Made by a program: the position numbers and the translations under genes. The notes beneath the pieces were generated by a model. That model saw nothing but the letters and a program-made list of their open reading frames with translations, did no database searches and was not told the DNA's origin. Below are positions 20,520 through 41,053 of a stretch of DNA of 64,000 nt, one piece after another. Position 1 is the stretch's first letter. Each line of letters starts with the position of its first letter. The stretch covers positions 127,137-191,136 of the forward strand of contig JAVBWN010000014.1 of NCBI GenBank assembly GCA_036677365.1. The letters run 5' to 3'. The stretch is from Acholeplasma sp. (GTDB taxonomy: Bacteria; Bacillota_I; Bacilli_A; Acholeplasmatales; UBA5453).

Positions 20520-20562
20520 TTTACAAGTTCTTTACAAACTGCTTACAAGAGTGTGATATATT
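20520..20562 (+). promoter_or_regulatory. PHO boxes and promoter of the pst operon
   Basis: TTTACA/TTTACA/CTTACA at 20520, 20531, 20542 (11-bp period, PhoP-type TT(A/T)ACA), then TGA-TATATT as -10. Confidence 0.82.
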
Positions 20563-20615: not shown

Positions 20616-21545
20616 ATGAGAAAAATATTCTTAGTATTGGCTTTAGCATTGTCATTCAGTTTAGCTGCTTGTACATCGGGTTCATCGTTTGATGATTCCA
20701 AAAACATCACCGTTTACACCCGTGATACCACCTCAGGTACACGTGCAGGGTTTATGGAAGGGATCGGGTTCTCAGCAGCAGCTGGTTCAGATGATGTGTT
20801 GGTTGAAGGTTTCGTCATCAAAGACAACACAGGGATCATGACTTCAATGGGTACCGATGAATACGGGATTGGCTATGTATCCTTATCCTCATTAAACAAT
20901 ACAATTAAAGGGTTAAGTTTTGAAGGTGTCGCACCAACGGTTGCGAACGTACTCAACAATACTTACGGATTAAAACGCCCATTCATGTGGATGGTCAGAG
21001 ACGCTGGTGATTATGAATCGACAGAAATTGAACAATTGGTCAATGCATTCGTCGCATTCTTAGGTACCACCGATGCCGCAGACATCATCAACAACAATGG
21101 TGCGATTGCGTTACAAACCACAGTGACTTGGGATTCGATCAAAGCACAACACCCAATCACCGCTAGAAACAATTCAAACGTGACCTTACGTTTTGGTGGG
21201 TCTGACTCCATTCAAAAAGTTGCACAAGCCTTAACACAAGCATTCAGTGCGAAAGCCGGTAACTTTGTGGCTGAACACGATCACACAGGTTCTGGGGATG
21301 CTTACAAGCGTACACAAACCATTGGTTTAAGCGATCCGGTTTCTAAACACGTTGGGTTCTCTTCAAGATATTTCAAAGACACAGAAAAAGTTGGGGTTGC
21401 AACCTCGGATATGGGTCAATTGGCTTGGGACGCGATTGTTGCGATTGTCCATAAGAACAACCCAGTGACCAACATTACAGCAGCACAACTCAAAGCGATT
21501 TACGACGGTACATATACTAAGTGGTCAGACGTCGTTTCTGAATAA
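20616..21545 (+). CDS. pstS: phosphate ABC transporter substrate-binding lipoprotein (circularly permuted type)
   Basis: Lipobox LAAC; RDTTSGTR, IGYVS, LKRPF, GSDS, GFSSR, DAIVAIVH; first gene of the pst operon. Confidence 0.9.
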   Translation: MRKIFLVLALALSFSLAACTSGSSFDDSKNITVYTRDTTSGTRAGFMEGIGFSAAAGSDDVLVEGFVIKDNTGIMTSMGTDEYGIGYVSLSSLNNTIKGLSFEGVAPTVANVLNNTYGLKRPFMWMVRDAGDYESTEIEQLVNAFVAFLGTTDAADIINNNGAIALQTTVTWDSIKAQHPITARNNSNVTLRFGGSDSIQKVAQALTQAFSAKAGNFVAEHDHTGSGDAYKRTQTIGLSDPVSKHVGFSSRYFKDTEKVGVATSDMGQLAWDAIVAIVHKNNPVTNITAAQLKAIYDGTYTKWSDVVSE

Positions 21546-21554
21546 ACCTGAAAT

Positions 21555-21576
21555 AGGCCCAATCGGGTCTTTTCTT
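21555..21576 (+). terminator. hairpin / partial terminator between pstS and pstC
   Basis: AGGCCC-AATC-GGGTCT + TTTCTT. Confidence 0.6.
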
Positions 21577-21596
21577 GCATAAAAAAGGAGTATCTG

Positions 21597-22553
21597 ATGC
21601 AATCAAAAATACATTTAAAACAGACTCAAAAAAGACATAATCAATGGCTAGATAACGCCATTAAATACATCTTGATGGGTTTTGCCATATTATCTTCCTC
21701 ATTCATCTTCATCATCGCAGGTGTCATCATGGTCAAAGGGGTTACCCCTTTTATCACGAATAATGGTGGTTTAGGTCGTGTGAATCTCGCTGACTTTTTA
21801 ACGGGTTCCACGTGGTTGATTGGGGAATCGTTTAACTCCAATTTATACGCGGTGGGTTTTCTCATCATCTCCACCCTATTCATCGCGTTTTTATCGTTGC
21901 TCATCTCATTTCCAGTTGGGGTACTGACTGCCTTATTCATTGCGAAAATCGCCCCTAAAAAACTGGCTGAAACCTTAAGAACCGTCATTGAAATGCTTGC
22001 CTCGATCCCATCGATTATTTACGGTTTGTTTGGAGCGGGGATCATTTTAAAACTGGTGTATGATTTTTCAACAATCCTTGGTTTCCAATCCAAAGGTGGT
22101 AACTCGATTTTATCTTCTGTACTGGTTTTAGCCATCATGACGATTCCAACGATTGCTTCCATCAGCGAAGTGGCGATCCGTAGTGTGGATAAATCGATTG
22201 AACATGGGTCTTTAGCCCTTGGGGCATCCAAAACCCAAACGCATTTCAAAGTCGTGTTAACCTCAGCGAAGAGTGGGATATTCACCTCAGTGATCCTGGG
22301 TATTGGCCGTGTGTTAGGTGAAGCGACCGCGGTTTCATTGGTGGCGGGTGGTAGACGAAGCGGGATCAATTTTAATATTCTGGATACCACATCGACGTTA
22401 ACCACCATGATGTTAGAAGGCATGAAGGAAACCACAGGGCTCGATTATGATATTCGCTTTTCTGTCGGTATTGTCCTGATGGTAGTGATTTTGATTACCA
22501 ACTTCACCTTAAACTACATCAAACGAAAGGTGGGGAATGTCGATGTTAAATAG
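21597..22553 (+). CDS. pstC: phosphate ABC transporter permease PstC
   Basis: EMLASIPSIIYG, SLALGAS EAA loop, GRVLGEA. Confidence 0.93.
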   Translation: MQSKIHLKQTQKRHNQWLDNAIKYILMGFAILSSSFIFIIAGVIMVKGVTPFITNNGGLGRVNLADFLTGSTWLIGESFNSNLYAVGFLIISTLFIAFLSLLISFPVGVLTALFIAKIAPKKLAETLRTVIEMLASIPSIIYGLFGAGIILKLVYDFSTILGFQSKGGNSILSSVLVLAIMTIPTIASISEVAIRSVDKSIEHGSLALGASKTQTHFKVVLTSAKSGIFTSVILGIGRVLGEATAVSLVAGGRRSGINFNILDTTSTLTTMMLEGMKETTGLDYDIRFSVGIVLMVVILITNFTLNYIKRKVGNVDVK

Positions 22554-23754
22554 CCGTAGAAAAAAAGACCTCATTTTACAATCCATCACTTATATGGCTT
22601 CATTCATCTCCTTATTCGTTTTGATATCGATTCTATTATTTGTGTTCCTCAATGGATTCAAATTGCTCAATATGGACCTCATTACCCATAACTTTGAATC
22701 GACCAGTTATATCGCCGATTTGAAAGATTTTACCGGTCCTGGGGTATTCAATACCAATAAAGATTTTGATGATCACACCTATTACTCTACCAAGTGGGGG
22801 ATTGCTTTGAGTGATTCTGAAAACTTGATGGGGCATACGATTGTCTTAGTGACCTACGTTCACGAAGATTCACCGTTTAAAGATTTACGTAACAAAGGGG
22901 TAGCTACCCAAGATCTGATGTTGGATGTCGATTACGAAATCGTCCGAATTGCTTTTGACGATGGGCCATCTGCGCTATCGATTCAAGGGGCACAAAACAT
23001 GATTCAAGTATTGGATACGAAAACGACCTTCCGTGAATTGGAATATTCAACCTCAGGGGGTGGAATTCGAGGGTCCATCATCACCACACTTTATTTGATT
23101 GGCTTAACCTTATTGATTGCTTTACCTGTTGGTGTGGGTGCAGCCTTATATTTGAATGAATATGCCCCTAAAAATAAGTTCACCAAAGCATTAAGAAACT
23201 TGATAGAAACCTTAACAGGTGTCCCATCCATCATCTACGGTTTGATGGGGTTAGCCTTGTTTGTCCCAATCACCATCTCCCTCACCAAAGCGACTGGGGC
23301 AAACCTCATTTCAGGGGCACTGACATTATCCGTCATTTTGATGCCTGTCATCATCCGTACCACAGAAGAATCGCTTAAAGTGGTGCCTGATGATTATAGA
23401 CATGCCTCCCTAGCTTTGGGTGGAAATAAAACCCAAACCACCTTTAAAATTGTTTTACCGAGTGCATTTTCAGGGATTCTAACCGCGACCTTGCTCGCGA
23501 TAGGCAGAATCATAGGGGAAAGTGCAGCTTTGGTATTCGCGGTAGGTACAGCCATCAAAGACCATGTATCCATCTATGATAAATCAACGTCATTATCCGT
23601 TCATATTTGGGCGATGATGACCGATGAACCTGCCAACATTGAATTATCGACCACCATCGCCATCATCATATTGGTGATCGTGTTATCGATGAATTTATCG
23701 ATCAAATTGATCTCGAAAAGACTGTTAAGAAAGTATGGTGTCACCCATGAATAA
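22537..23754 (+). CDS. pstA: phosphate ABC transporter permease PstA with large extracellular insertion
   Basis: [33 protein letters not shown]; about 120 extra residues after TM1. Confidence 0.92.
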
Positions 23755-24502
23755 AGTATTTGATGTCAAAGGACTTGACCTTTATTATGGTCAAAAACAA
23801 GCCTTAAAACAAATTGAATTTTCAATTTATGAGAAGAAAGTCACCGCGCTGATTGGGCCATCGGGTTGTGGGAAATCGACTTTTTTACGTACCTTGAACC
23901 GGATGAACGACTTGATTGACAACTGTGTCATACAAGGCGAAATCCACTACAATCATCAACAAATTTATGATAAACAAACCGATGTCATTGGTCTTAGGAT
24001 TAAAGTTGGGATGGTATTTCAAAAACCAAACCCATTCCCGATGAGTATTTATGACAACATCGTCTATGGTCCTAGGTGCCAAGGCATTAAAAACAAAGCA
24101 GAACTCGATGAAATTGTTAAAACCGCTTTAGAACAAGCTGCCTTATGGGAAGAAGTCAAAGACCGTTTGAGAGAATCCGCCTTATCCTTATCGGGTGGAC
24201 AACAACAACGTTTGTGTATCGCTAGAGCATTGGCGATGAAACCCGAAGTCCTTCTGATGGATGAACCCACCTCAGCACTTGACCCGATCGCAACCTCCAA
24301 AATCGAGGATTTGATTTTACAACTCAAACAAAATTACACGATTGTCATTGTCACGCACAACATGCAACAAGCGGCCCGTATTTCGGACTATACCGCATTT
24401 TTCCTCTTAGGTGAAATGGTCGAATACGAAGAAACCGAACGATTATTCTCACACCCGAGGGACCAACGCACCGAAGATTACATCACCGGTCGTTTTGGAT
24501 AA
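23747..24502 (+). CDS. pstB: phosphate ABC transporter ATPase PstB
   Basis: [49 protein letters not shown]. Confidence 0.98.
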
Positions 24503-24511
24503 TGATATAAT
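24503..24511 (+). promoter_or_regulatory. internal extended -10 promoter for phoU-phoP-phoR
   Basis: TGATATAAT immediately after the pstB stop, 20 bp before the phoU start. Confidence 0.55.
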
Positions 24512-24531
24512 GAAAGTAAAGGTGATTACCC

Positions 24532-25191
24532 ATGAATCGTAATACGTATCAAACCGCCTTGAATCAACTTAAAAAATCCGTCATTGAAATGGCTGACCAA
24601 GCCTTACTCAATGTCAGAGATGGCTTAAAAAGTTTTGAAACCAACGATTTGGTTTTAGCCAAAAACATCATCAAAGCCGACGACCAAATCGACATGATGG
24701 AAGAAGAAATTTCCAAACAAGCCTTAAGAATCATTTGGAAAGAACAACCCATCGCCCAAGATTTACGTTTGGTCACGACCATTCTAAAAATACTCACAGA
24801 CATTGAACGCATCGGTGACCATGCTTCAGACATTTCAGAGATTTCTTTACATTTGGAAGGTCACCAATTTGTGCGCGATTTATCGGTCGTTTTATCGATG
24901 GCTAAACACGCCGAACACATGGTCCAATCCGCGATTGAAGCGTTGGTGAGTGAAGACGCTGTGTTAGCGAAACTCATCATCGCTCAAGACGACATTGTTG
25001 ACCATGAATACCGACAAATGATTCAACTTGCTGCCCAGTGGATCAAAGACGATGTCGATGATACGCCTTATGTCATCTCCATCATCTTAATTTCTAAATA
25101 CCTTGAACGCGTCGCTGACCACGCCGTGAATATCGCCGAATGGGTTATATTTTTGGTCACGGGTTCACACAAGAATACACCCCTATTTTAA
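24532..25191 (+). CDS. phoU: phosphate signalling protein PhoU
   Basis: QPIAQDLR, DIERIGDHA, YLERVADHAVNIAE. Confidence 0.96.
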   Translation: MNRNTYQTALNQLKKSVIEMADQALLNVRDGLKSFETNDLVLAKNIIKADDQIDMMEEEISKQALRIIWKEQPIAQDLRLVTTILKILTDIERIGDHASDISEISLHLEGHQFVRDLSVVLSMAKHAEHMVQSAIEALVSEDAVLAKLIIAQDDIVDHEYRQMIQLAAQWIKDDVDDTPYVISIILISKYLERVADHAVNIAEWVIFLVTGSHKNTPLF

Positions 25192-25200
25192 GGAGGGTTT

Positions 25201-25875
25201 ATGCCAAAAATCTATTTTATCGAGGATGACCATTCGATTGCCTATGTGATTGAAAAAACCCTCAGTAACGCAAAATATGAATATAGATGGTTTCAACAGG
25301 GTAAAGACTTATTCGAAGCGATCGAAAAATCACTGCCAGATTTGATTCTTTTAGATTTGATGTTGCCCAATGAATCGGGGTTAGATCATTTGAAACGCTT
25401 GAGATCAGACAAACAAACCGAAGATATCCCTGTGATCATCTTATCGGCATTATCCAGTGAACTCGACAAAGTCACAGGTTTGGATTTGGGTGCCGATGAT
25501 TATTTAACCAAACCATTTGGGGTCTTGGAATTGTTATCGCGGATTCAAAGTAAACTCAGAAAAACCAAAATCAAAAAACGCTTGGAAATTGGTAACATTC
25601 AAATGGATTTACAAACCCGTGAGGTCACTGTGGATGCACAACTCGTCACATTGACCTATAAGGAGTTTGAACTCTTAAAACTATTGTTAGAACACCCAGA
25701 TGAAGTGTTGCACCGAGACCGCATATTTCAAGTGGTTTGGGGGTCGGATTTGGTTTTGGAGTCCAGAACCATCGACATGCATGTCAAATCGATTCGTAAA
25801 AAACTGATGGATTTGAGTGCGAGCATTGAAATCATCACCGTGAGAGCGGTGGGTTATCGGTTGGTGAAACTATGA
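25201..25875 (+). CDS. phoP: OmpR-family response regulator PhoP/PhoB
   Basis: EDD, LDLMLP, GADDYLTKPF, SRTIDMHV wHTH; located in the pst operon. Confidence 0.88.
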   Translation: MPKIYFIEDDHSIAYVIEKTLSNAKYEYRWFQQGKDLFEAIEKSLPDLILLDLMLPNESGLDHLKRLRSDKQTEDIPVIILSALSSELDKVTGLDLGADDYLTKPFGVLELLSRIQSKLRKTKIKKRLEIGNIQMDLQTREVTVDAQLVTLTYKEFELLKLLLEHPDEVLHRDRIFQVVWGSDLVLESRTIDMHVKSIRKKLMDLSASIEIITVRAVGYRLVKL

Positions 25876-27557
25876 AACGCACCTTCGTTTTATACCACCT
25901 CTTGATGACGAGTTTGCTGATTGTTTTATATTTAGCGATTTCTTTTACGCTTACCAACTTTGTCAATCAAAGACAATCGGCCTATATGCTCGATATTGTT
26001 TTAGAAGACACTTTGGTGGCTTATAATTATAAAACGGTCACAGATGAAGTCTTCGTCACCCAATTTCAAAACTCAAATAAACGCATTTCCATCATCACTC
26101 CTGAAGGGGTCACGATTGCCGATTCAATGCGCATTTCAACCTCTGGCAATCAAAATAACTACCCTGAAATCAAAAATCTAGGGCGTGCTTACACCCGATA
26201 TTCAGAAACACTCAATTTGAATTTAATGTATATCGCGAATCGTGCTGCCAATGGCAATTACGTGCGGGTTGCCATCGTTATGGATCAAAATATCGCCTTA
26301 AATACCCAAACCATTTCCATTTTAATCCTCATCTCTTTGGGGATTCTTGGGTTATCGGTAGGAAGCTATAAAAAGATTTCCGATACCTTCATGAAACCCA
26401 TCCATGACATCGCCCTGTCGGTTAAAAGTATTAAAGACGGTCATTACCAATGGGTGATGCCTGCCACACAATACGATGAAATCAATGAATTGTTACGAGA
26501 AATCAATGGGGTCAATGAATCGATTGTCAGAAACATCCATAGCCTCAATGAAAAAGAAGAATTGTTATCGATTTTGGTTAAACACATGGACCAAGGCATC
26601 TTACTGGTTGGTTCAGACCAATCGATCGTCTTTTATAATGAACTTGCACAAAAATGGTTTAACATCAAAGAACACGATTTGATCCTTTCGATTCGTAATA
26701 AAGAAATTTATGAAGCGATCAAACTCGCCACGGAAGAAGATATATCACTATCCTTTAGAGTTCCTTACCACGAACGATTCATTATGGTCACAGTCAATAG
26801 TGTATACAACAAGTTACTATTGAAATCAAAAGGCAAACAAGGGGTATTGGTTACCTTGATTGACGATACCGACCGCATTCGCCTAGAAAACAACAAACGT
26901 GATTTCTTCGCCAATGCTTCCCATGAACTGCGTACCCCACTGACAGCCATCAAAGGGTCTGCAGAACTCATCTTATATGAAATGGCGACCCCTGACGAAA
27001 AGAAAAAGTTATCACAAGAAATCATTCACCAAGTGGTGATCATGGATAACTTACTCAAAGACATGTTAGAACTCTCTAGACTTGAGAACAGACCAAAGAT
27101 GGATCAAGTCTCATTCAATTTGAAAAAGGTATTGGATGGGGTTTTAGAAGATTTGAACCCGCTCATTCAGGATAAGCAAATTCAAGTCACTTTGGAAACA
27201 CATAACGTGATGTTTAAAGGCATCGAGACCGATTTTAAATCCCTCTTTAAGAACTTGATTGAAAATGCCATCAAATACAATAAATTTGGTGGGGCCATTG
27301 ACATCGCTTTAACTCAAAATGAAGATGTCATCAAAATCAGAATTAAAGACACGGGCATTGGTATTCCAAAAGAATATCAACAACGGATTTTTGAGCGGTT
27401 CTATCAGGTCAACAAATCAAGGAATCTGTATCAAAATGGCACAGGTTTGGGTTTAGCCATCGTGAAGCATGTGGTATCTTACTATAAAGGCATCATCACG
27501 GTGGAATCAGAACTCAATGTGGGGTCTACGTTCACCATCACATTCCATAAAGAATAA
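25872..27557 (+). CDS. phoR: sensor histidine kinase PhoR
   Basis: 2 TM + HAMP + PAS; H-box ASHELRTPL, N-box NAIKYN, DTGIGI, GTGLGLAIV. Confidence 0.9.
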   Translation: MKRTFVLYHLLMTSLLIVLYLAISFTLTNFVNQRQSAYMLDIVLEDTLVAYNYKTVTDEVFVTQFQNSNKRISIITPEGVTIADSMRISTSGNQNNYPEIKNLGRAYTRYSETLNLNLMYIANRAANGNYVRVAIVMDQNIALNTQTISILILISLGILGLSVGSYKKISDTFMKPIHDIALSVKSIKDGHYQWVMPATQYDEINELLREINGVNESIVRNIHSLNEKEELLSILVKHMDQGILLVGSDQSIVFYNELAQKWFNIKEHDLILSIRNKEIYEAIKLATEEDISLSFRVPYHERFIMVTVNSVYNKLLLKSKGKQGVLVTLIDDTDRIRLENNKRDFFANASHELRTPLTAIKGSAELILYEMATPDEKKKLSQEIIHQVVIMDNLLKDMLELSRLENRPKMDQVSFNLKKVLDGVLEDLNPLIQDKQIQVTLETHNVMFKGIETDFKSLFKNLIENAIKYNKFGGAIDIALTQNEDVIKIRIKDTGIGIPKEYQQRIFERFYQVNKSRNLYQNGTGLGLAIVKHVVSYYKGIITVESELNVGSTFTITFHKE

Positions 27558-35409: not shown

Positions 35410-36894
35410 ATGAAAAATTCGATTTTAGTCGAAAAAATTATCGAATCGGCTAAAGCCATCCTACCTGTGGGTCTTTTAGGTTTAATCGTCAGTATCCTCA
35501 TTAAAGTAGAAGGTACCGATTTGATTAACTTCGGGATTGGAACAGCGATGTTGATTTTAGGCTTAGCTCTGTTCCAAATTGGTTCGCTGTCGTCTACCGT
35601 TGCGCTTGCTGAAGATATCGGTATATTCATTACTCGCAAAAAGAAGTTACCCCTTTTCATTGGTGTAGCGTTAATTCTTGGATTAATGATTACAGTTGCA
35701 GAACCTCAACTATGGGTGCTTGGAGACCAATTAAAAGAAGTCATTCCACCCGTTGTATTGATTCTAACTGTATCAGTAGGCGTTGGGATTTTAATTGTCC
35801 TTGCACTCTTGCGTATCCTATTCCAATTTAGTTTACAAAAAATGTTCATGATTCTTTATATCACGCTATTCATATTGGCTGGTATCGTATCATTTAGCAG
35901 TCCAGATTTCATTCCTGTGGCATTTGACTCGGGTGGTGTAACGACTGGACCCATGGTGTTTTCATTTATCATGGCGTTTGGATATGGTATTTCTCATGCC
36001 CGTGGTGATAAATCTTCTGAACTTGATGCCTTTGGTTTAATTGGTATTGTTTCTGTAGGCCCAATTCTCAGTGTTTTGTTGTTGGGAATCTTTTACAATC
36101 CGAGTGCACCAATTGTGGATACGAGTTCAACACTAATCGATTATTTGCTCATCAATATTACTCAAATGGCGATTGCAATATTACCGTTTGTTCTATTATT
36201 TTTCGTTTTTCAAATTACCGCTTTCAAATTCCCAAAAATTCGTGTTTATAAGATTTTAGTATCCTTTTTATATACATATTTAGGTCTGGTGTTATTCTTA
36301 ACAGGTGCGAATGGCGGATTGGTCAATATTGGTACTTACATAGGCGAATATTTTGGGGGTAACATGAAATGGTTACTCATTCCACTAGGCATGATCTTTG
36401 GACTATCGGTCGTTGCAGCAGAACCAACTGTTATCGCATTGAATCGTCAAGTTGAAGAAGTTTCTGCCGGTGCTATTAGCCGTCGCATCATGATGGTTGC
36501 GTTATCGATTGGGGTTTCAGTGGCTGTAGGATTATCGATGCTACGTGTCGTGACAGGTATCAGCATCTGGTGGATTTTATTACCTGGCTATGGTATAACG
36601 ATACTATTGACATTTATATCACCTAAAATCTTCTCATCGATTGCATTTGACTCAGGTGCAGCTGTGACCGGTGTATTAGCGACCGGATTCCTCATGCCAC
36701 TCGCAATTGGGGCAGCGATTGCCATCCCAGGGGCGAATCCATTAACAGATGCTTTCGGGTTGATTGCTTTAGTAGCGATGACCCCGCTCATCACCATTCA
36801 ATTGGTTGGGATGATGGCTCAACGTCGTCAACATAAATCAAAAGCGGTTGTTGTTGAGGATGAAATTATTGACTTAAAAGGAGAAAAATCATGA
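35410..36894 (+). CDS. DUF1538-domain membrane protein (two fused repeats), putative transporter
   Basis: Internal duplication: TVAEP/AAEP, AFDSGGVTTGP/AFDSGAAVTG, DAFGLI twice; highly hydrophobic. Confidence 0.85.
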   Translation: MKNSILVEKIIESAKAILPVGLLGLIVSILIKVEGTDLINFGIGTAMLILGLALFQIGSLSSTVALAEDIGIFITRKKKLPLFIGVALILGLMITVAEPQLWVLGDQLKEVIPPVVLILTVSVGVGILIVLALLRILFQFSLQKMFMILYITLFILAGIVSFSSPDFIPVAFDSGGVTTGPMVFSFIMAFGYGISHARGDKSSELDAFGLIGIVSVGPILSVLLLGIFYNPSAPIVDTSSTLIDYLLINITQMAIAILPFVLLFFVFQITAFKFPKIRVYKILVSFLYTYLGLVLFLTGANGGLVNIGTYIGEYFGGNMKWLLIPLGMIFGLSVVAAEPTVIALNRQVEEVSAGAISRRIMMVALSIGVSVAVGLSMLRVVTGISIWWILLPGYGITILLTFISPKIFSSIAFDSGAAVTGVLATGFLMPLAIGAAIAIPGANPLTDAFGLIALVAMTPLITIQLVGMMAQRRQHKSKAVVVEDEIIDLKGEKS

Positions 36895-37217
36895 GATTGA
36901 TGATTACAATTGTACCGAAAGGTAAAGCCGATGCAGTTGCAAAAGTCATCGGTGAAGGACTCATTCATCATCAAGAAACGATGCTTGGACGTGGGACAGC
37001 ACCAACCGACATTATGGAGATGTTGGCAATGAGTGAACGTGACAAAGAAGTGATCTTCTCGATTGTAGATGACAACGATGTGAATATGATTTATCAGGAT
37101 TTAGACGAAACATTCGACTTTAAAAATTCCCATTTTGGGATTTCCTTTACGATTGAAATTGACTCAATTGGTAAAATGGGATTTAATTATTTATACGAAA
37201 TTACGGAGGAAGCATAG
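36891..37217 (+). CDS. PII-like (GlnB-fold) protein 1
   Basis: LMITIVPKGK...LGRGTA...KEVIFSIV...GISFTI. Confidence 0.78.
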   Translation: MRLMITIVPKGKADAVAKVIGEGLIHHQETMLGRGTAPTDIMEMLAMSERDKEVIFSIVDDNDVNMIYQDLDETFDFKNSHFGISFTIEIDSIGKMGFNYLYEITEEA

Positions 37218-37218
37218 T

Positions 37219-37539
37219 ATGGAAAATCAATCATTGATATTATTCGTTTGTAATCATGGCTATGCCTATGATGCAATGGCTGAGGCTAGAAAAGCAGGGG
37301 CTCGTGGTGGAACCATTATTCATGGTAGAAGTAGCATATCTACCGAAAAACAAAAGTTCTTTGGAATCACTGTACACCCTGAAAAAGACATTTTGATGGT
37401 TGTATGTACTGAAGAACAAAAACCTCTTTTAATGAAGGCGATGAGTTCAAAATACGGTGTCACTTCCGATGCAAAAGGGCTTTGTTTCTCTCTCAAAGTT
37501 GAAGATTCAATTGGCATCAGTTTTGATCCACTCGTTTAA
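37219..37539 (+). CDS. PII-like (GlnB-fold) protein 2
   Basis: AMAEARKAGARGGTIIHGR...PEKDILMVV...GLCFSL; start at ATG 37219 after GGAGG. Confidence 0.82.
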   Translation: MENQSLILFVCNHGYAYDAMAEARKAGARGGTIIHGRSSISTEKQKFFGITVHPEKDILMVVCTEEQKPLLMKAMSSKYGVTSDAKGLCFSLKVEDSIGISFDPLV

Positions 37540-37569: not shown

Positions 37570-38577
37570 TTGGATACTTTGGTATTTGCAATCAACGCCA
37601 TCATGCCGATTGTGCTTTTGATTGTGTTGGGTTACGGTTTAATGAGGGTACATTTTCTCGATGAAAAATTCTTAAAAATGGCGAATCGTTTTGTATTTTT
37701 CATCGCTTTACCCGTATTATTAGCGAAAAATATATACGATGTCGACTCGATTGGACAAATTGAGTTTGGGATTGTCATCATCTCTTGTTTAGGCATATTC
37801 TTATTGTTTTTAATCGGTCTTTTGGTAGTTAAATGGTTGGTACCCAAGGATGAGCGTAAAGGTGTCGTCTTACAATGTTTATTCCGTTCGAACTTCGCCA
37901 TCATCGGGTTGCCTTTAGCCACGTCTTTAGGCGGTAATGGCGCAGCAGCATTGGTATCCATTCTAGCCGCATTCACCATCCCATTATTCAACATATTAGC
38001 GGTATTATCCTTAACGATGTTCAATAAAGAACACGGCAGCCTAAACTTTAAAAAAGTGGCTCGAGATGTGGTGAAAAACCCACTCATCATCGGTGTCGTG
38101 GTCGGATCTTTCTTATTGGTACTACGTGAATTTATCCCTATGGTGGACGGCGAACGCGTCTTTTCCATTAAACGCGATATGCCATTTTTCTATCAAGCAG
38201 TGAAATACGTCGCAGACATCGCTTCGCCACTCGCATTGATTGTTTTGGGTGGTCAGTTTAAGTTTAAAGCACTCGCTTCCATGATCAAAGAAGTATCGAT
38301 TGGTGTGGTGGGTAGATTGATATTCGCACCAACCCTTGGGTTCGCTTTGATTTATTTGGCAGATGCTTTGATTCCAAGTTTTGAAATGAAAGCGAGTTAT
38401 TTTGCGGGAACCATCGCGTTATTTGCTTCACCGGTAGCGGTATCTTCTGCAGTCATGGCATCAGAAATGAAAGCCGATGAATCCTTGGCTGCACAACTGG
38501 TCGTTTGGACATCCTTATTTTCTGTGTTCTCGATTTTCGGGATTGTCGTCGTCCTTAGAAGCTTAGGTTTATTATAA
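37570..38577 (+). CDS. AEC (auxin efflux carrier / malate permease) family transporter
   Basis: FVFFIALP, FRSNFAIIGLP, KNPLI, ASPLALIVLG, SPVAV. Confidence 0.9.
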   Translation: MDTLVFAINAIMPIVLLIVLGYGLMRVHFLDEKFLKMANRFVFFIALPVLLAKNIYDVDSIGQIEFGIVIISCLGIFLLFLIGLLVVKWLVPKDERKGVVLQCLFRSNFAIIGLPLATSLGGNGAAALVSILAAFTIPLFNILAVLSLTMFNKEHGSLNFKKVARDVVKNPLIIGVVVGSFLLVLREFIPMVDGERVFSIKRDMPFFYQAVKYVADIASPLALIVLGGQFKFKALASMIKEVSIGVVGRLIFAPTLGFALIYLADALIPSFEMKASYFAGTIALFASPVAVSSAVMASEMKADESLAAQLVVWTSLFSVFSIFGIVVVLRSLGLL

Positions 38578-38585
38578 TTACATCC

Positions 38586-38625
38586 AACACGATGACCACA
38601 ATCCCAAGGTAATCGTGTTTTTATT
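38586..38625 (+). terminator. intrinsic terminator after the AEC gene
   Basis: AACACGAT...ATCGTGTT + TTTATTTT. Confidence 0.7.
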
Positions 38626-38633
38626 TTGATAAT

Positions 38634-38664
38634 CGTCAAGGTTTTGTAAAGATTGTGTTAAAAT
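38634..38664 (-). promoter_or_regulatory. inverted PHO-box-like repeats overlapping the extended -10 of the VTC gene
   Basis: Minus strand reads TTAACA-N5-TTTACA-N5-TTGACG (11-bp period). Plus-strand TGTTAAAAT at 38656-38664. Confidence 0.55.
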
Positions 38665-38695
38665 AATTACAGCAACGATGATCGAGGTTTTTACT

Positions 38696-39412
38696 ATGGC
38701 TTTAGGGCAATCTTTCAACCGATTTGAAAAAAAATATTTAGTCACCAAAGCACAAAAAGACGAACTCGTCGATTTTTTAACACAATACTTAACGTTTGAT
38801 GATTATTCTAAAGATGACTATTATACAATTTACAACATTTACTACGATACTGCTGACCAAAACATCATCCGCCAATCGGTGGATAAACCGCCATATAAAG
38901 CGAAATTAAGGTTGCGAAGTTATACGTGTCCAGTCGAACCAACCGATTTGGTATTCCTAGAAATTAAAAAGAAAATCGATGGTAAAGTCACCAAACGTCG
39001 GGTCATCATGACCTATGTAGATGCCAACCGGTTTGTGATCAAAGGGGTGCGTCCTAAGATGCACGATTACATGTCGCAACAAGTACTCAATGAAATCGAC
39101 TATTATTTGAAGCGAAACCCCGTTCAACCGAATTATTACATTGCCTATGAACGTAGGGCGATGGCAGATGCACAAAATTTGCTTCGCGTCACCATCGATA
39201 AACGGATCGATATCCGGCGCGAAGATGTGAGTTTCTTGTTGTGTGGGGGACATTCAATGTTACCGAAAGACCACTACTTGATTGAAATCAAATCGGGTGA
39301 AAATTTTCCGATTTGGTTAGCTCACAAACTGTCTGAAATGAACTTATTTGCGCAAAGCTTTTCGAAATACGGGGAAGCTTACCGCATCAGTATACAAGGA
39401 GAAGAATTATAA
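38696..39412 (+). CDS. VTC-domain (polyphosphate polymerase-like, CYTH/TTM fold) protein
   Basis: RFEKKY, NIYYDT, KLRLRSY, FLEIKKK, KRR, YER, RVTID, EIK, FSKY. Confidence 0.9.
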   Translation: MALGQSFNRFEKKYLVTKAQKDELVDFLTQYLTFDDYSKDDYYTIYNIYYDTADQNIIRQSVDKPPYKAKLRLRSYTCPVEPTDLVFLEIKKKIDGKVTKRRVIMTYVDANRFVIKGVRPKMHDYMSQQVLNEIDYYLKRNPVQPNYYIAYERRAMADAQNLLRVTIDKRIDIRREDVSFLLCGGHSMLPKDHYLIEIKSGENFPIWLAHKLSEMNLFAQSFSKYGEAYRISIQGEEL

Positions 39413-40092
39413 TGGAAAACTTTTTAAAATTACCAATGACCAACATCACTTACACCACGGTCTTAATCGTACTTGTGGTGACCACCTTGCTTGGGATGTT
39501 ACTATCCTTAGCACTGGCTTATATTAGACGTAAAGAAGGGTATGATCGTTCATTTGTCGTGACATTATTGTTGTTGCCACTGATCATTTCAATCATCATC
39601 ATGTTGGTCTCCGATAACGTCGCTAGAGCCTTCAGTTTGGCAGGTGTATTCACATTGGTTCGTTTCAGAACAACCATCAGCGACACCAAAGACATCACCT
39701 TCGTCTTTTCAACCGTAGCGATTGGTTTAGCCACAGGGATGGGCTATATTGGTTATGCCATGATCATCACCGCGTTCATTATCGCTGTGCTCTTATTGAT
39801 TCATCTATTCAAACTCGATGAAATCAAAGACAACCATGCGAAACTCAAAATTGTGGTTCCTGAAAGTTTAAATTATGTGGGTGCCTTTGAACCTGTGTTG
39901 ATTGAATATTGTTCGCACGCCAAATTGAAAAAAGTGAAAACCACCGATTTTGGTACCACGTTTGAACTGACCTATTTAATTAATATGAAAAGTGGCATCA
40001 ATCAAAAAATGTTCATCGATGATTTAAGGGTCATCAATGGCAATTTAAACATCATTTTGACCCAGGAGTATCTTGAAAGAGCAGTAGACTAA
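39412..40092 (+). CDS. DUF4956 membrane protein (MgtC-like TMs + ACT-like C-terminus)
   Basis: AFSLAGVFTLVRFRT...DTKDI...GLATGMG; translationally coupled to the VTC gene, its usual partner. Confidence 0.88.
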   Translation: MENFLKLPMTNITYTTVLIVLVVTTLLGMLLSLALAYIRRKEGYDRSFVVTLLLLPLIISIIIMLVSDNVARAFSLAGVFTLVRFRTTISDTKDITFVFSTVAIGLATGMGYIGYAMIITAFIIAVLLLIHLFKLDEIKDNHAKLKIVVPESLNYVGAFEPVLIEYCSHAKLKKVKTTDFGTTFELTYLINMKSGINQKMFIDDLRVINGNLNIILTQEYLERAVD

Positions 40093-40095
40093 ACC

Positions 40096-40527
40096 ATGAA
40101 ATCATTTCAATATCGAATCTCCATTGAAATCGAAGTACCGCGTCAAAAAGTGGTAGAAACGTTGTTTGATTATGACCAATTTGTGAATTACCAAGAACCA
40201 CCCCTCAAGTCTTATACTTTAAAACAAGGTAATTACTTACAACCCAACGCGATTGTCGATTTGGTTTACCTATATAAAAAACAAGAAATTCACATGGCTG
40301 AAATCACCGTTGAATGTGATTTGCCCAACCGTATTCACCAACTTTTCATCTTAGGTGAAGTCAAGAATAAATGCATCTCGCATTTTATTGAGACCAAAAA
40401 AGGCACGCTATGGACCATGGATGTGACCTTTCAGTTTCCTAAAGACGATGGTCAAGACAAACTCGAATACATGAAGAAAACCGAAGAAGACATGGTCACT
40501 TTCAAACATTACGTGGAGAACTTATGA
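40096..40527 (+). CDS. SRPBCC/START-like hypothetical protein
   Basis: ISIEIEVPRQKV start and C-terminal helix MVTFKHYVE, typical of the SRPBCC fold. Confidence 0.6.
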   Translation: MKSFQYRISIEIEVPRQKVVETLFDYDQFVNYQEPPLKSYTLKQGNYLQPNAIVDLVYLYKKQEIHMAEITVECDLPNRIHQLFILGEVKNKCISHFIETKKGTLWTMDVTFQFPKDDGQDKLEYMKKTEEDMVTFKHYVENL

Positions 40528-41012
40528 TCCGATTAGCAACCGAAAAAGACATTAAAGCAATACAAGCCATTTATAAAGACGGTAGGGCACTGATTGCATC
40601 CTACGGGTCACCGCAGTGGCAAAATAATTACCCTATGCTTTCAGTGACATTATCTGACATTGAACAGCATGCATTATACGTCTATGAAGACCAAGATATT
40701 CTAGGTGTCATGACAGTGTTTGATGATGAACCCACCTATAATAAAATTGAAGGGGCTTGGTTATCCAATAGACCTTATAAAGTCATTCACCGCATCGCGA
40801 CCAAAGCAGGCCATTATGGTAAAGGTATCTCAAAATCATTGATTGAATTTGTGTTTACCGATTTGAATGCACAAAGCATTCGTATCGATACCCATGAACT
40901 GAATATACCGATGCAAAACTTACTCAAGAAGATGGATTTCACCTATTGTGGGAAAATCTACTTGAATCAACCCACCGACCGGATGCGACTGGCATATCAA
41001 AAAGACAAATAA
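40524..41012 (+). CDS. GNAT-family N-acetyltransferase
   Basis: IRLAT, QWQNNYP, VIHRIA, GKG, RIDTHELN.PM. Confidence 0.9.
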   Translation: MIRLATEKDIKAIQAIYKDGRALIASYGSPQWQNNYPMLSVTLSDIEQHALYVYEDQDILGVMTVFDDEPTYNKIEGAWLSNRPYKVIHRIATKAGHYGKGISKSLIEFVFTDLNAQSIRIDTHELNIPMQNLLKKMDFTYCGKIYLNQPTDRMRLAYQKDK

Positions 41013-41025
41013 TCGAAAAAAGTCT

Positions 41026-41053
41026 TTGACAAATGAATCATATTCATTATAAT
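41026..41053 (+). promoter_or_regulatory. tRNA promoter
   Basis: TTGACA 41026-41031, 16 bp spacer, TATAAT 41048-41053. Confidence 0.85.

Follow-up and report, generated by a model that had tools for sequence, protein, structure and literature searches.

A VTC-domain enzyme and its DUF4956 membrane partner beneath inverted PhoP-type boxes in Acholeplasma: a possible PPK-independent polyphosphate system

Introduction

Might a small bacterium in whose genome no polyphosphate kinase (PPK) is found make polyphosphate with a VTC-domain enzyme, and might it repress that enzyme when phosphate runs short? The question is raised by a locus of Acholeplasma sp. (assembly GCA_036677365.1), studied here in a 64-kb window, that is, the whole stretch of DNA analysed (contig JAVBWN010000014.1, 127,137-191,136), whose numbering is used for all positions. 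The window comes from a 1.97-Mb genome of 37 contigs that is 99.86% complete. In this locus, a gene for a VTC-domain tunnel enzyme overlaps a gene for a DUF4956 membrane protein, and three PhoP-type hexamers lie inverted across the promoter of the pair. Our overall reading, offered tentatively, is that of a PPK-independent VTC polymerase with its DUF4956 partner under an inverted PhoP-type operator, repressed in phosphate starvation. The features on which this reading turns are the following.

38696..39412, plus strand: VTC-domain triphosphate-tunnel enzyme gene, 238 amino acids (Pfam VTC, PF09359)
39412..40092, plus strand: DUF4956 membrane protein gene, 226 amino acids (Pfam PF16316)
38634..38661, minus strand: three PhoP-type hexamers with an 11-bp period, at about -37 to -10 of the promoter (from the sequence)
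38656..38664, plus strand: extended -10, TGTTAAAAT, with TG at 38656-57 and the hexamer TAAAAT at 38659-64

The enzyme and its membrane partner

The VTC protein matches PF09359 over profile positions 1-233 of 235 (E 2.5e-38, 132.4 bits; cut-off 23) and consists of the VTC domain alone, with no SPX domain and no transmembrane domain found. A profile built from 14 VTC sequences reaches the structure of yeast Vtc4 (3g3q, E 1.3e-10), with K13 aligned to K200 of Vtc4, R72 to R264, R74 to R266, K91 to K281, K100 to K294, R102 to R296, Y151 to Y359, R153 to R361 and R164 to R373. All nine of these alignable tunnel residues are invariant in the VTC alignment, and we take the corresponding Vtc4 positions to be functionally important residues of the polymerase tunnel; the basic tunnel motifs, which a previous reading of the bare sequence (hereafter the sequence-only reading) had described as intact, are indeed so. 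Single-sequence searches of solved structures returned nothing for either the VTC or the DUF4956 protein. With an AF2 model of the VTC protein (pLDDT 89.3), Foldseek finds Vtc4 as the best match (E 7.6e-13, TMq 0.72); chains of Vtc4 or of the VTC complex occupy ranks 1-11 (E 7.6e-13 to 9.5e-10, TMq 0.61-0.75), and CYTH triphosphatases and cyclases come after them, from E 3.4e-8 and with TMq of about 0.5. Because Foldseek ranks Vtc4 ahead of the CYTH enzymes, placement of the protein in the Vtc4 branch of tunnel enzymes is supported, on sequence and model comparison. The family itself is extensive, with 4973 clusters at E<=1e-10 and the NCBI name "polyphosphate polymerase domain-containing protein"; the nearest named relatives belong to Acholeplasma, Acholeplasmataceae and Izemoplasmatales. 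NCBIfam has no model for the VTC or the DUF4956 protein. Taken as a pair, they represent nothing unusual within a big bacterial family that is already known but uncharacterised.

The partner matches PF16316 with an E value of 1.9e-17 and 63.9 bits (cut-off 30.6), as do all 15 aligned partner proteins from related loci. Five helices (residues 14-132) and a C-terminal ACT-like domain of beta-alpha-beta-beta-alpha-beta order (residues 142-217) are seen in its AF2 model (pLDDT 76.5). Foldseek and VIA fold searches with the whole model matched only this C-terminal domain and generic helical bundles, and they list no membrane chain of the VTC complex, which does not by itself exclude such a likeness. 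The C-terminal domain resembles ACT/S6-like folds, among them the MgtC domains 2lqj (Z 8.0) and 7qa5 (Z 7.3), whose scores are tied with those of many other folds of this type. Against the MgtC family of Pfam (PF02308) the protein reaches 10.2 bits, below the threshold of 31.4, and sub-threshold matches occur in 11 of the 15 partners (best E 0.026). When aligned by hhalign to nine true MgtC proteins of related genomes, DUF4956 gives a probability of 90.6% and an E value of 1.3e-6 over 191 columns, and a DUF4956 profile found nothing among solved structures. Judged by profile and model comparison, DUF4956 is a remote homologue of MgtC, a likeness already published for SIR_1592 of S. intermedius. 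The sequence-only reading had seen a translocase in this partner, a role that fares poorly here: DUF4956 has no detectable likeness to a Vtc1-type channel, and we know of no MgtC protein that transports anything. The loops RRKEGYDR and FRTTISDTKD and the ACT-like domain are predicted to be cytoplasmic, from our own reading of loop charge, and could form a docking face for the enzyme.

The two genes are closely tied. The stop codon of the VTC gene (TAA, 39410-39412) shares one base with the DUF4956 start codon (ATG, 39412-39414; together TAATG), and the genes are translationally coupled. With the Pfam matches, this overlap bears out the initial description of a VTC/TTM-fold enzyme coupled to a DUF4956 membrane protein. 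The VTC open reading frame (ORF) as called runs from 38678 to 39412 on the plus strand; in an alignment of eight loci of the genus, however, the conserved start is the ATG at 38696, preceded by GAGG at 38684-38687, and both elements are conserved in the genus, so that this ATG is likely the true start. VTC and DUF4956 are adjacent in 15 of 15 related loci. In a wider set of 80 loci, DUF4956 immediately follows VTC in 75, sits at some other place of the locus in 2 and was not found in 3. They are an obligate pair in Mycoplasmatota and Bacillota alike. Both families, furthermore, match in the same 3 of 14 control genomes. A natural VTC-DUF4956 fusion also exists (P0001, 477 amino acids, in a cluster of 48 sequences), which is weak evidence, as it represents one lineage and its topology, on the charged-loop reading, may differ from that of the window protein. 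P0001 has a Pro/Arg-rich linker and comes from a G+C-rich organism; P0002, the second listed relative, looks like the same fusion gene with compensating frameshifts.

The boxes on the promoter

On the minus strand, the boxes read TTAACA-N5-TTTACA-N5-TTGACG, corresponding on the plus strand to CGTCAA (38634-38639), TGTAAA (38645-38650) and TGTTAA (38656-38661). Scored against three copies of TT[ATC]ACA they reach 16/18, made up of a perfect two-box core and a third box with four of six matches. The box TGTTAA shares bases with the extended -10, TGTTAAAAT. This element lacks a good -35 at 16-18 bp upstream, which is why a simple promoter scan missed it. The arrangement, three inverted hexamers of the pstS type with an 11-bp period overlapping an extended -10, was the starting observation of the sequence-only reading and is confirmed in the sequence. 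In B. subtilis, TT(A/T/C)ACA repeats with an 11-bp period reportedly span the core promoter of tagA/tagD on its non-coding strand; this layout, with at least two such hexamers, is matched at the VTC promoter. The boxes sit exactly on the promoter of the genome's only polyphosphate-related gene, and about 0.001 perfect cores would be expected per 100-bp intergenic stretch. Specifically, no match to PPK1, PPK2 or Ppx-GppA was found in this nearly complete genome; the check for ppk1 and ppk2 that the sequence-only reading had proposed thus found neither.

The reference for these boxes lies in the same window, where the phosphate uptake operon carries its own two-component genes.

20616-27557: pstSCAB-phoU-phoP-phoR operon (Pfam)
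25201-25875: phoP response-regulator gene, within the pst operon
~20520..20547, plus strand: reference PHO boxes of the pst operon, TTTACA-N5-TTTACA-N5-CTTACA, ending 9 nt before the -10

The best NCBIfam match of the regulator is PhoB and those of the kinase are PnpS/PhoR, all below the equivalog cut-offs. As these two-component genes lie inside the operon, it would be autoregulated. The genome encodes six OmpR-type regulators. Read on the plus strand, TGTAAA-N5-TGTTAA fits the YycF/WalR consensus exactly. This consensus is TGT(A/T)A(A/T/C)-N5-TGT(A/T)A(A/T/C), and the in-silico YycF/WalR list in the accessible part of the same source includes the pstS, pitA and phnD promoters in reverse orientation (PMC5405149), so that the PhoP and WalR motifs are mirror images of each other. 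A WalR/YycF regulon site was considered and set aside: among the genome's regulators the highest YycF score is 179.8, where the equivalog cut-off is 340, and a search of the genome for PBP transpeptidases gave no match; both results make a WalRK system unlikely in what looks like a wall-less member of Mycoplasmatota.

On these grounds the following course of events can be proposed. Transcription would start at the extended -10 promoter beneath the three inverted hexamers, and a regulator of the OmpR family probably binds them, a step to which we give slightly better than even weight. This regulator would most likely be the PhoP encoded 13 kb upstream, a step that, taken with those before it, is possible rather than probable. 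Once bound, the regulator would block RNA polymerase and lower expression in phosphate starvation, and the full chain up to this point has to be called doubtful. The enzyme, for its part, would work at the membrane and, without need of PPK, build polyphosphate from the phosphate of ATP, for which we see the balance as about even. DUF4956 would dock the enzyme through its cytoplasmic loops and ACT-like domain and would then either regulate it or pass the chain on; an anchor or regulator and a conduit are indistinguishable here.

Boxes upstream of VTC genes in other Bacillota

In the wider set (L047-L126, one genome per species, mostly Bacillota), TTHACA-N5-TTHACA was counted in the intergenic region just upstream of VTC where this measured at least 50 bp, which left 65 loci, and, as controls, in the remaining 209 intergenic regions of these loci that bear a promoter. 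Sites of at least 11/12 occur in 20 of the 65 VTC-upstream regions against 20 of the 209 controls (Fisher p 8e-5), and perfect sites in 7 against 3 (p 0.002), p values that overstate the case, as the loci are related and the likeness of TTHACA to a -35 hexamer is only partly corrected by the controls. The two kinds of region are alike in G+C (0.319 and 0.331), and 200 composition-matched simulations gave on average 2.3 regions with a site of at least 11/12 (maximum 7) and 0.065 with a perfect site (maximum 1). When the VTC proteins are clustered at 70% identity, 14 of 51 clusters have a site and 6 a perfect one (200-bp scan). Literature searches turned up no report of Pho-type boxes upstream of bacterial VTC genes.

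The orientation of these sites tells a different story from the one at the Acholeplasma promoter. The 200-bp scan took in 75 loci, the other 5 lying too close to the end of a contig. Of the 75, 14 carry forward boxes and 7 reverse ones, and mostly forward boxes in distant relatives imply activation, not repression. L060, L067/L075 and L123 each have two forward boxes that stop 9-11 nt short of the -10, as at the window's pstS. Three of five such genomes also have a PstS-family gene with forward boxes of the same hexamer type; in the other two no pstS boxes were found, and some matches were split by stops.

Neighbouring genes add a further connection. A Pfam scan of one gene upstream and two downstream of the pair (208 proteins, 78 loci; E<=1e-10 in a first batch and 1e-12 in a second) shows that two-component genes adjoin the pair in 16 of 78 loci, 10 of which were seen to include an OmpR-type regulator. 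These regulators are 30-37% identical to several regulators of the window genome, without a clear orthologue. The adjacent kinases were tried as PhoR candidates and rejected, as they match in the catalytic core only and below the cut-off. The same scan finds the Cthe_2159 carbohydrate-binding beta-helix protein adjoining the pair in 33 of 78 Bacillota loci and CotH in 2.

Taken together, the sequences suggest that in many Bacillota the VTC family is linked to a PhoP-type regulator, mostly in an activating layout. A Pho-type link for the family thereby gains support, and repression at the present locus is plausible. The fate of the sequence-only reading is accordingly divided. Its link between this family and phosphate homeostasis stands insofar as boxes are enriched upstream of VTC genes in Bacillota, but the repressing layout is the less common one. 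Conservation upstream of orthologues, which it had named as a check, gives a mixed picture: within the order the site is kept in 4 of 15 loci, and in the 80 distant loci such sites are enriched, mostly as forward ones. The claim that PhoP~P switches the pair off is weakened by both the narrow spread of the inverted boxes and the prevalence of forward ones elsewhere. The repression model is plausible for the genus and rests on one unconserved site.

Weighing the explanations

Several lines of evidence weigh against a polymerase that is repressed through these boxes. Genome-wide, three-box sites (TT[ATC]ACA three times at N5 spacing, both strands, cut-off 16/18) number 10, against a mean of about 13 (range 6-21) in ten Markov-1 genomes. 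In the 184 kb of intergenic-like DNA there are 2 (3 with the pstS site, which is hidden by the ORF mask) against a mean of 2.0 in 40 simulations, and perfect two-box cores number 10 against 9.7 expected. The box motif alone is at chance level in this genome, and its placement is what is unusual. Its history is also short. The VTC protein is present in 15 of 41 related genomes (the window's own counted), and the boxes are kept in 4 of these 15 loci, L004-L007, which are the closest (VTC identity 83-100%). They are lost in L008 and L009, L010 and L013 have no promoter region before VTC at all, and seven more distant loci of the same order have no two-box site of at least 11/12 within 250 bp. The pstS boxes, by contrast, are identical or near-identical in 6 of 6 genomes examined (the window's own and 5 of 9 other members of the genus). 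To this can be added that TTHACA resembles a -35 hexamer, that the VTC genes of yeast are induced by phosphate starvation and not repressed, and that the boxes of distant relatives mostly point forward. On the side of the enzyme, the invariant E11 aligns with T198 of Vtc4, the C-terminal motifs could not be aligned with those of Vtc4, and no enzymological work on a bacterial VTC protein came up in literature searches. No Vtc1-type family appears among the Pfam matches of the 15 partners at E<=10. Of 41 relatives, 3 have PPK1 (none of them with VTC), none has PPK2, and 23 have neither PPK1 nor VTC. In S. intermedius, deletion mutants of the corresponding genes showed no clear phenotype, according to the portion of the preprint available (bioRxiv 10.1101/2024.04.20.589940).

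It is quite possible, then, that the boxes have no regulatory role at all and are a chance or promoter-related motif on a constitutively expressed extended -10, kept by recent descent. The right-hand box would simply be the extended -10 itself, the genome-wide counts equal chance, two of the perfect cores lie in IS605-like copies, and the 11 of 15 related loci without boxes contrast with four box-keeping loci whose VTC identity is at least 83% and whose whole intergenic region is similar. What such an account leaves to coincidence is that a perfect core, so rarely expected in a stretch of this length, falls on the promoter of the one polyphosphate gene, that all four substitutions in the box stretch of L006 fall in spacers, and that boxes are strongly enriched upstream of VTC in the 80 other loci. 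Within the four loci, the left box is better in L007 (TTGACA) and worse in L005; the -10 region reads TGTGTTAAAAT in L004-L007, ATGTTAAAAT in L008 and TGTGCTACAAT in L009. Alternatively, the operator is real but serves another OmpR-family regulator, either one of the five others, akin to the two-component systems beside the pair in Clostridia, or one of WalR-like specificity. The exact fit to the YycF/WalR consensus, the six OmpR-type regulators to choose from and the two-component genes that adjoin the pair elsewhere all lend themselves to this view, which we nevertheless consider rather unlikely: the best YycF score is far from the cut-off, no PBP transpeptidase is found, the clustered regulators have no clear orthologue here, and the hexamers are of the same type as those of pstS. 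Finally, the minus-strand boxes, which in that direction have the orientation of an activator site, might drive a leftward antisense promoter into the 3' end of the upstream transporter gene, where there is a weak promoter-like site (TTTACA-16-CAAAAT, 9/12). This is very improbable, since such a transcript would reach no gene on the minus strand, would start from a poor -10 and would run straight into a terminator hairpin; the available RNA contigs carry no strand information.

The enzyme could also be a tunnel hydrolase (a tripolyphosphatase, polyphosphatase or nucleoside triphosphatase) or a cyclase, with DUF4956 as anchor or sensor. CYTH triphosphatases and class IV cyclases have the same fold (E to 3e-8), and E11, where Vtc4 has a threonine, is presumably one glutamate of the hydrolase-type ExExK motif and a metal-binding position. 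Forward boxes, as found in relatives, are typical of phosphate-scavenging genes, and Pho control would suit a phosphate-releasing enzyme. Still, both the sequence and the model stand clearly closer to Vtc4 than to the CYTH enzymes, the nine alignable basic tunnel residues are kept, and a PPK that could supply polyphosphate as substrate is missing from the genome, so that we regard a hydrolase or cyclase as doubtful. In the C-terminal part, E197-I-K199 and S223-K224-Y225 are invariant, and we take E426 and S457/K458 to be C-terminal catalytic residues of Vtc4; the profile alignment to Vtc4 ended at residue 178 and a C-terminal VTC profile search reached no Vtc4 chain. PPK1 and VTC never co-occur (3 and 15 carriers), which is not significant (p ~0.24 by our own estimate), and because most relatives without VTC also lack PPK, its absence characterises the clade as a whole and does not set the VTC carriers apart. 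Returning to the preferred reading of a PPK-independent polymerase with inverted boxes, it can be extended to the view that VTC-DUF4956 is a Pho-regulon polyphosphate synthase throughout Bacillota and Mycoplasmatota, possibly exporting to the surface, with boxes that mostly activate and that were flipped onto the -10 in this genus to give repression. We think this improbable.

Neighbouring genes, other sites and occurrence

Around the pair, the window has the following features.

37570..38577, plus strand: AEC-type/Mem_trans membrane transporter gene (Pfam PF03547, E 4.7e-25)
38586..38628, plus strand: intrinsic terminator downstream of the transporter gene, formed by the hairpin 38586-38619 and a T-run behind it (from folding)
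40096..40527, plus strand: gene for a 143-amino-acid protein, 4 bp past DUF4956
40524..41012, plus strand: GNAT acetyltransferase gene (Pfam Acetyltransf_1/3), overlapping the 143-amino-acid gene by 4 bp
41026-41053: consensus promoter (12/12) after the GNAT gene, opening the next unit

The order transporter-VTC-DUF4956 recurs in eight loci of the genus. At this locus, the transporter gene is probably a transcript separate from the pair: the terminator hairpin has a fold energy of -12 kcal/mol (z -3.5; 1 of 200 shuffles equally good), and its stem, ACACGAT/ATCGTGT, recurs with variable loops in six genus loci. In L010 and L013 (G002, G003), VTC begins right where the transporter gene stops, which leaves no room for a terminator or promoter, and the pair is there probably co-transcribed with the AEC-type transporter. 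L008 (G007:C2) has a VTC orthologue with an in-frame TAA, boxes lost from its promoter and an intact DUF4956 gene; this VTC gene may be a pseudogene or an assembly error. Further upstream in the window, a DUF1538 membrane protein (494 amino acids) and, after it, two overlapping ORFs (108 and about 106 amino acids) without a Pfam family form a tight three-gene unit (35410-37539) just before the transporter gene.

Downstream, the 143-amino-acid gene probably shares an operon with the pair, with the GNAT gene probably the final gene of an operon spanning 38696-41012. The 143-amino-acid protein matches no Pfam family at E<=0.01; an Atlas feature search relates it at 0.97 to SRPBCC clusters, which is a lead only, and the product may be SRPBCC-like. 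Its gene stands beside the pair in eight genus loci and in none of seven more distant ones (tblastn), a linkage confined to the genus. No CotH or carbohydrate-binding gene adjoins the pair in the window; a Pfam scan of the neighbours found none, in agreement with what had been noticed from the sequence. The genome has two CotH genes, on other contigs than the pair, and no Cthe_2159 gene was found in it. Among the relatives, 12 of 15 VTC carriers and 15 of 26 non-carriers have CotH, showing no dependence.

Perfect cores outside long ORFs number seven of the ten in the genome: those of pstS and VTC, two in IS605-like copies, and three others, of which one is inverted near an ArsC/LMW-phosphatase-like gene, one precedes a 908-amino-acid protein and one lies at the very start of an ORF. 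The first of these three, a perfect inverted TTTACA-N5-TTTACA (G000:C8:40265-40281; L040 766-782), is 78 bp upstream of the gene for the ArsC/low-molecular-weight-phosphatase-like protein, in the same orientation as at the VTC promoter. The top three-box site besides pstS, TTCACA-N5-TTCACA-N5-TTCAAA (G000:C12:4686-4713, L039; 17/18), lies 90 bp upstream of the 908-amino-acid protein, which has no Pfam family. In the IS605-type copies, nearly identical to each other (G000:C5:24168-24184 and C20:35820-35836; their ORF begins MTKAFKFRIYPN), TTCACA-N5-TTCACA stands just before TATAAT; these boxes belong to a mobile element and not to a regulon.

The stretch occurs in DNA runs from sediment, groundwater, bioreactor, wastewater, soil and plastic, and partly in six RNA libraries. 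Contigs of four RNA libraries from four studies cover parts of the VTC and DUF4956 genes; two of them bridge the junction between the genes (X15 record 4, X16 record 9), and one bridges position 40524 (X15 record 6), all from metatranscriptomes without conditions attached, which show no start, strand or level and may include DNA contamination. Positions 38609-38857 are left uncovered by the contigs of all four RNA runs, which is no proof of a transcript start, and contigs of three runs stop at 38579, 38593 and 38608, a weak hint of the terminator.

Implications and comparison with known systems

In the sampled reviews, as far as their accessible text goes, bacterial polyphosphate synthesis is the work of PPK enzymes and VTC is eukaryotic (PMC12526157, PMC10657179); despite this PPK-only picture, bacterial VTC-domain genes exist in their thousands. 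The present locus offers a stripped-down test case, an enzyme and a membrane partner in a small genome that yielded no PPK1, PPK2 or Ppx, and its organism occurs in sludge, wastewater and bioreactor samples, where polyphosphate metabolism matters in practice. The new comparative result is the enrichment of PhoP-type boxes upstream of VTC genes in Bacillota.

Among known bacterial loci, the closest is SIR_1594/1593/1592 of S. intermedius (CotH/VTC-like/DUF4956, at the pel locus), with the same two families in the same order. In the part of the preprint that is accessible, SIR_1593 is described as VTC-like with catalytic residues and SIR_1592 as MgtC-like with an ACT domain, and its authors report no three-gene set outside pel operons (bioRxiv 10.1101/2024.04.20.589940). 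The CotH/VTC-like/DUF4956 set was first noted beside Gram-positive pel operons, as an accessible section of that work states (bioRxiv 10.1101/768473). Unlike in S. intermedius, no CotH, pel, DUF4832 or carbohydrate-binding gene is adjacent in the window, and CotH is unlinked.

The partner shares with MgtC of Salmonella and Mycobacterium an N-terminal helical membrane domain, a C-terminal ACT-like domain and profile-profile homology, but it stays below the MgtC Pfam threshold, and the genome has a separate gene of the true MgtC family. To our knowledge, no MgtC has been found to pair with a tunnel enzyme. In the accessible parts of two sources, MgtC is tied to phosphate signalling via PhoR and limits phosphate assimilation (PMC6658541, PMC7980370).

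For the promoter, the nearest parallel is that of tagAB/tagDEF in B. subtilis, whose reported box layout is also that of the VTC promoter. Repression of tagAB by PhoP~P is described in the available part of one study (PMC6232261). The Acholeplasma site, a candidate, differs from it in being unconserved beyond close relatives, and its target is a polyphosphate-type enzyme as opposed to wall teichoic acid synthesis.

As for the enzyme, CYTH proteins (ygiF, archaeal and plant TTMs, class IV adenylate cyclases) share with it the eight-stranded tunnel fold and the N-terminal glutamate E11, but they are weaker matches than Vtc4 (E >=3e-8, TMq ~0.5 against 0.72), and the protein belongs to the VTC family of Pfam. 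The eukaryotic VTC complex (Vtc4 with Vtc1/2/3/5; 3g3q, 7ytj, 8i6v) differs in several respects: the window protein has neither an SPX domain nor a fused transmembrane domain, its partner is DUF4956/MgtC-like with five helices and an ACT-like domain where Vtc1 is a three-helix subunit, and the organism, unlike yeast, has no vacuole, so that anything translocated would end up outside the wall-less cell. What the two systems have in common is the VTC domain with its predicted tunnel fold and nine residues, and an enzyme that is coupled to a membrane protein.

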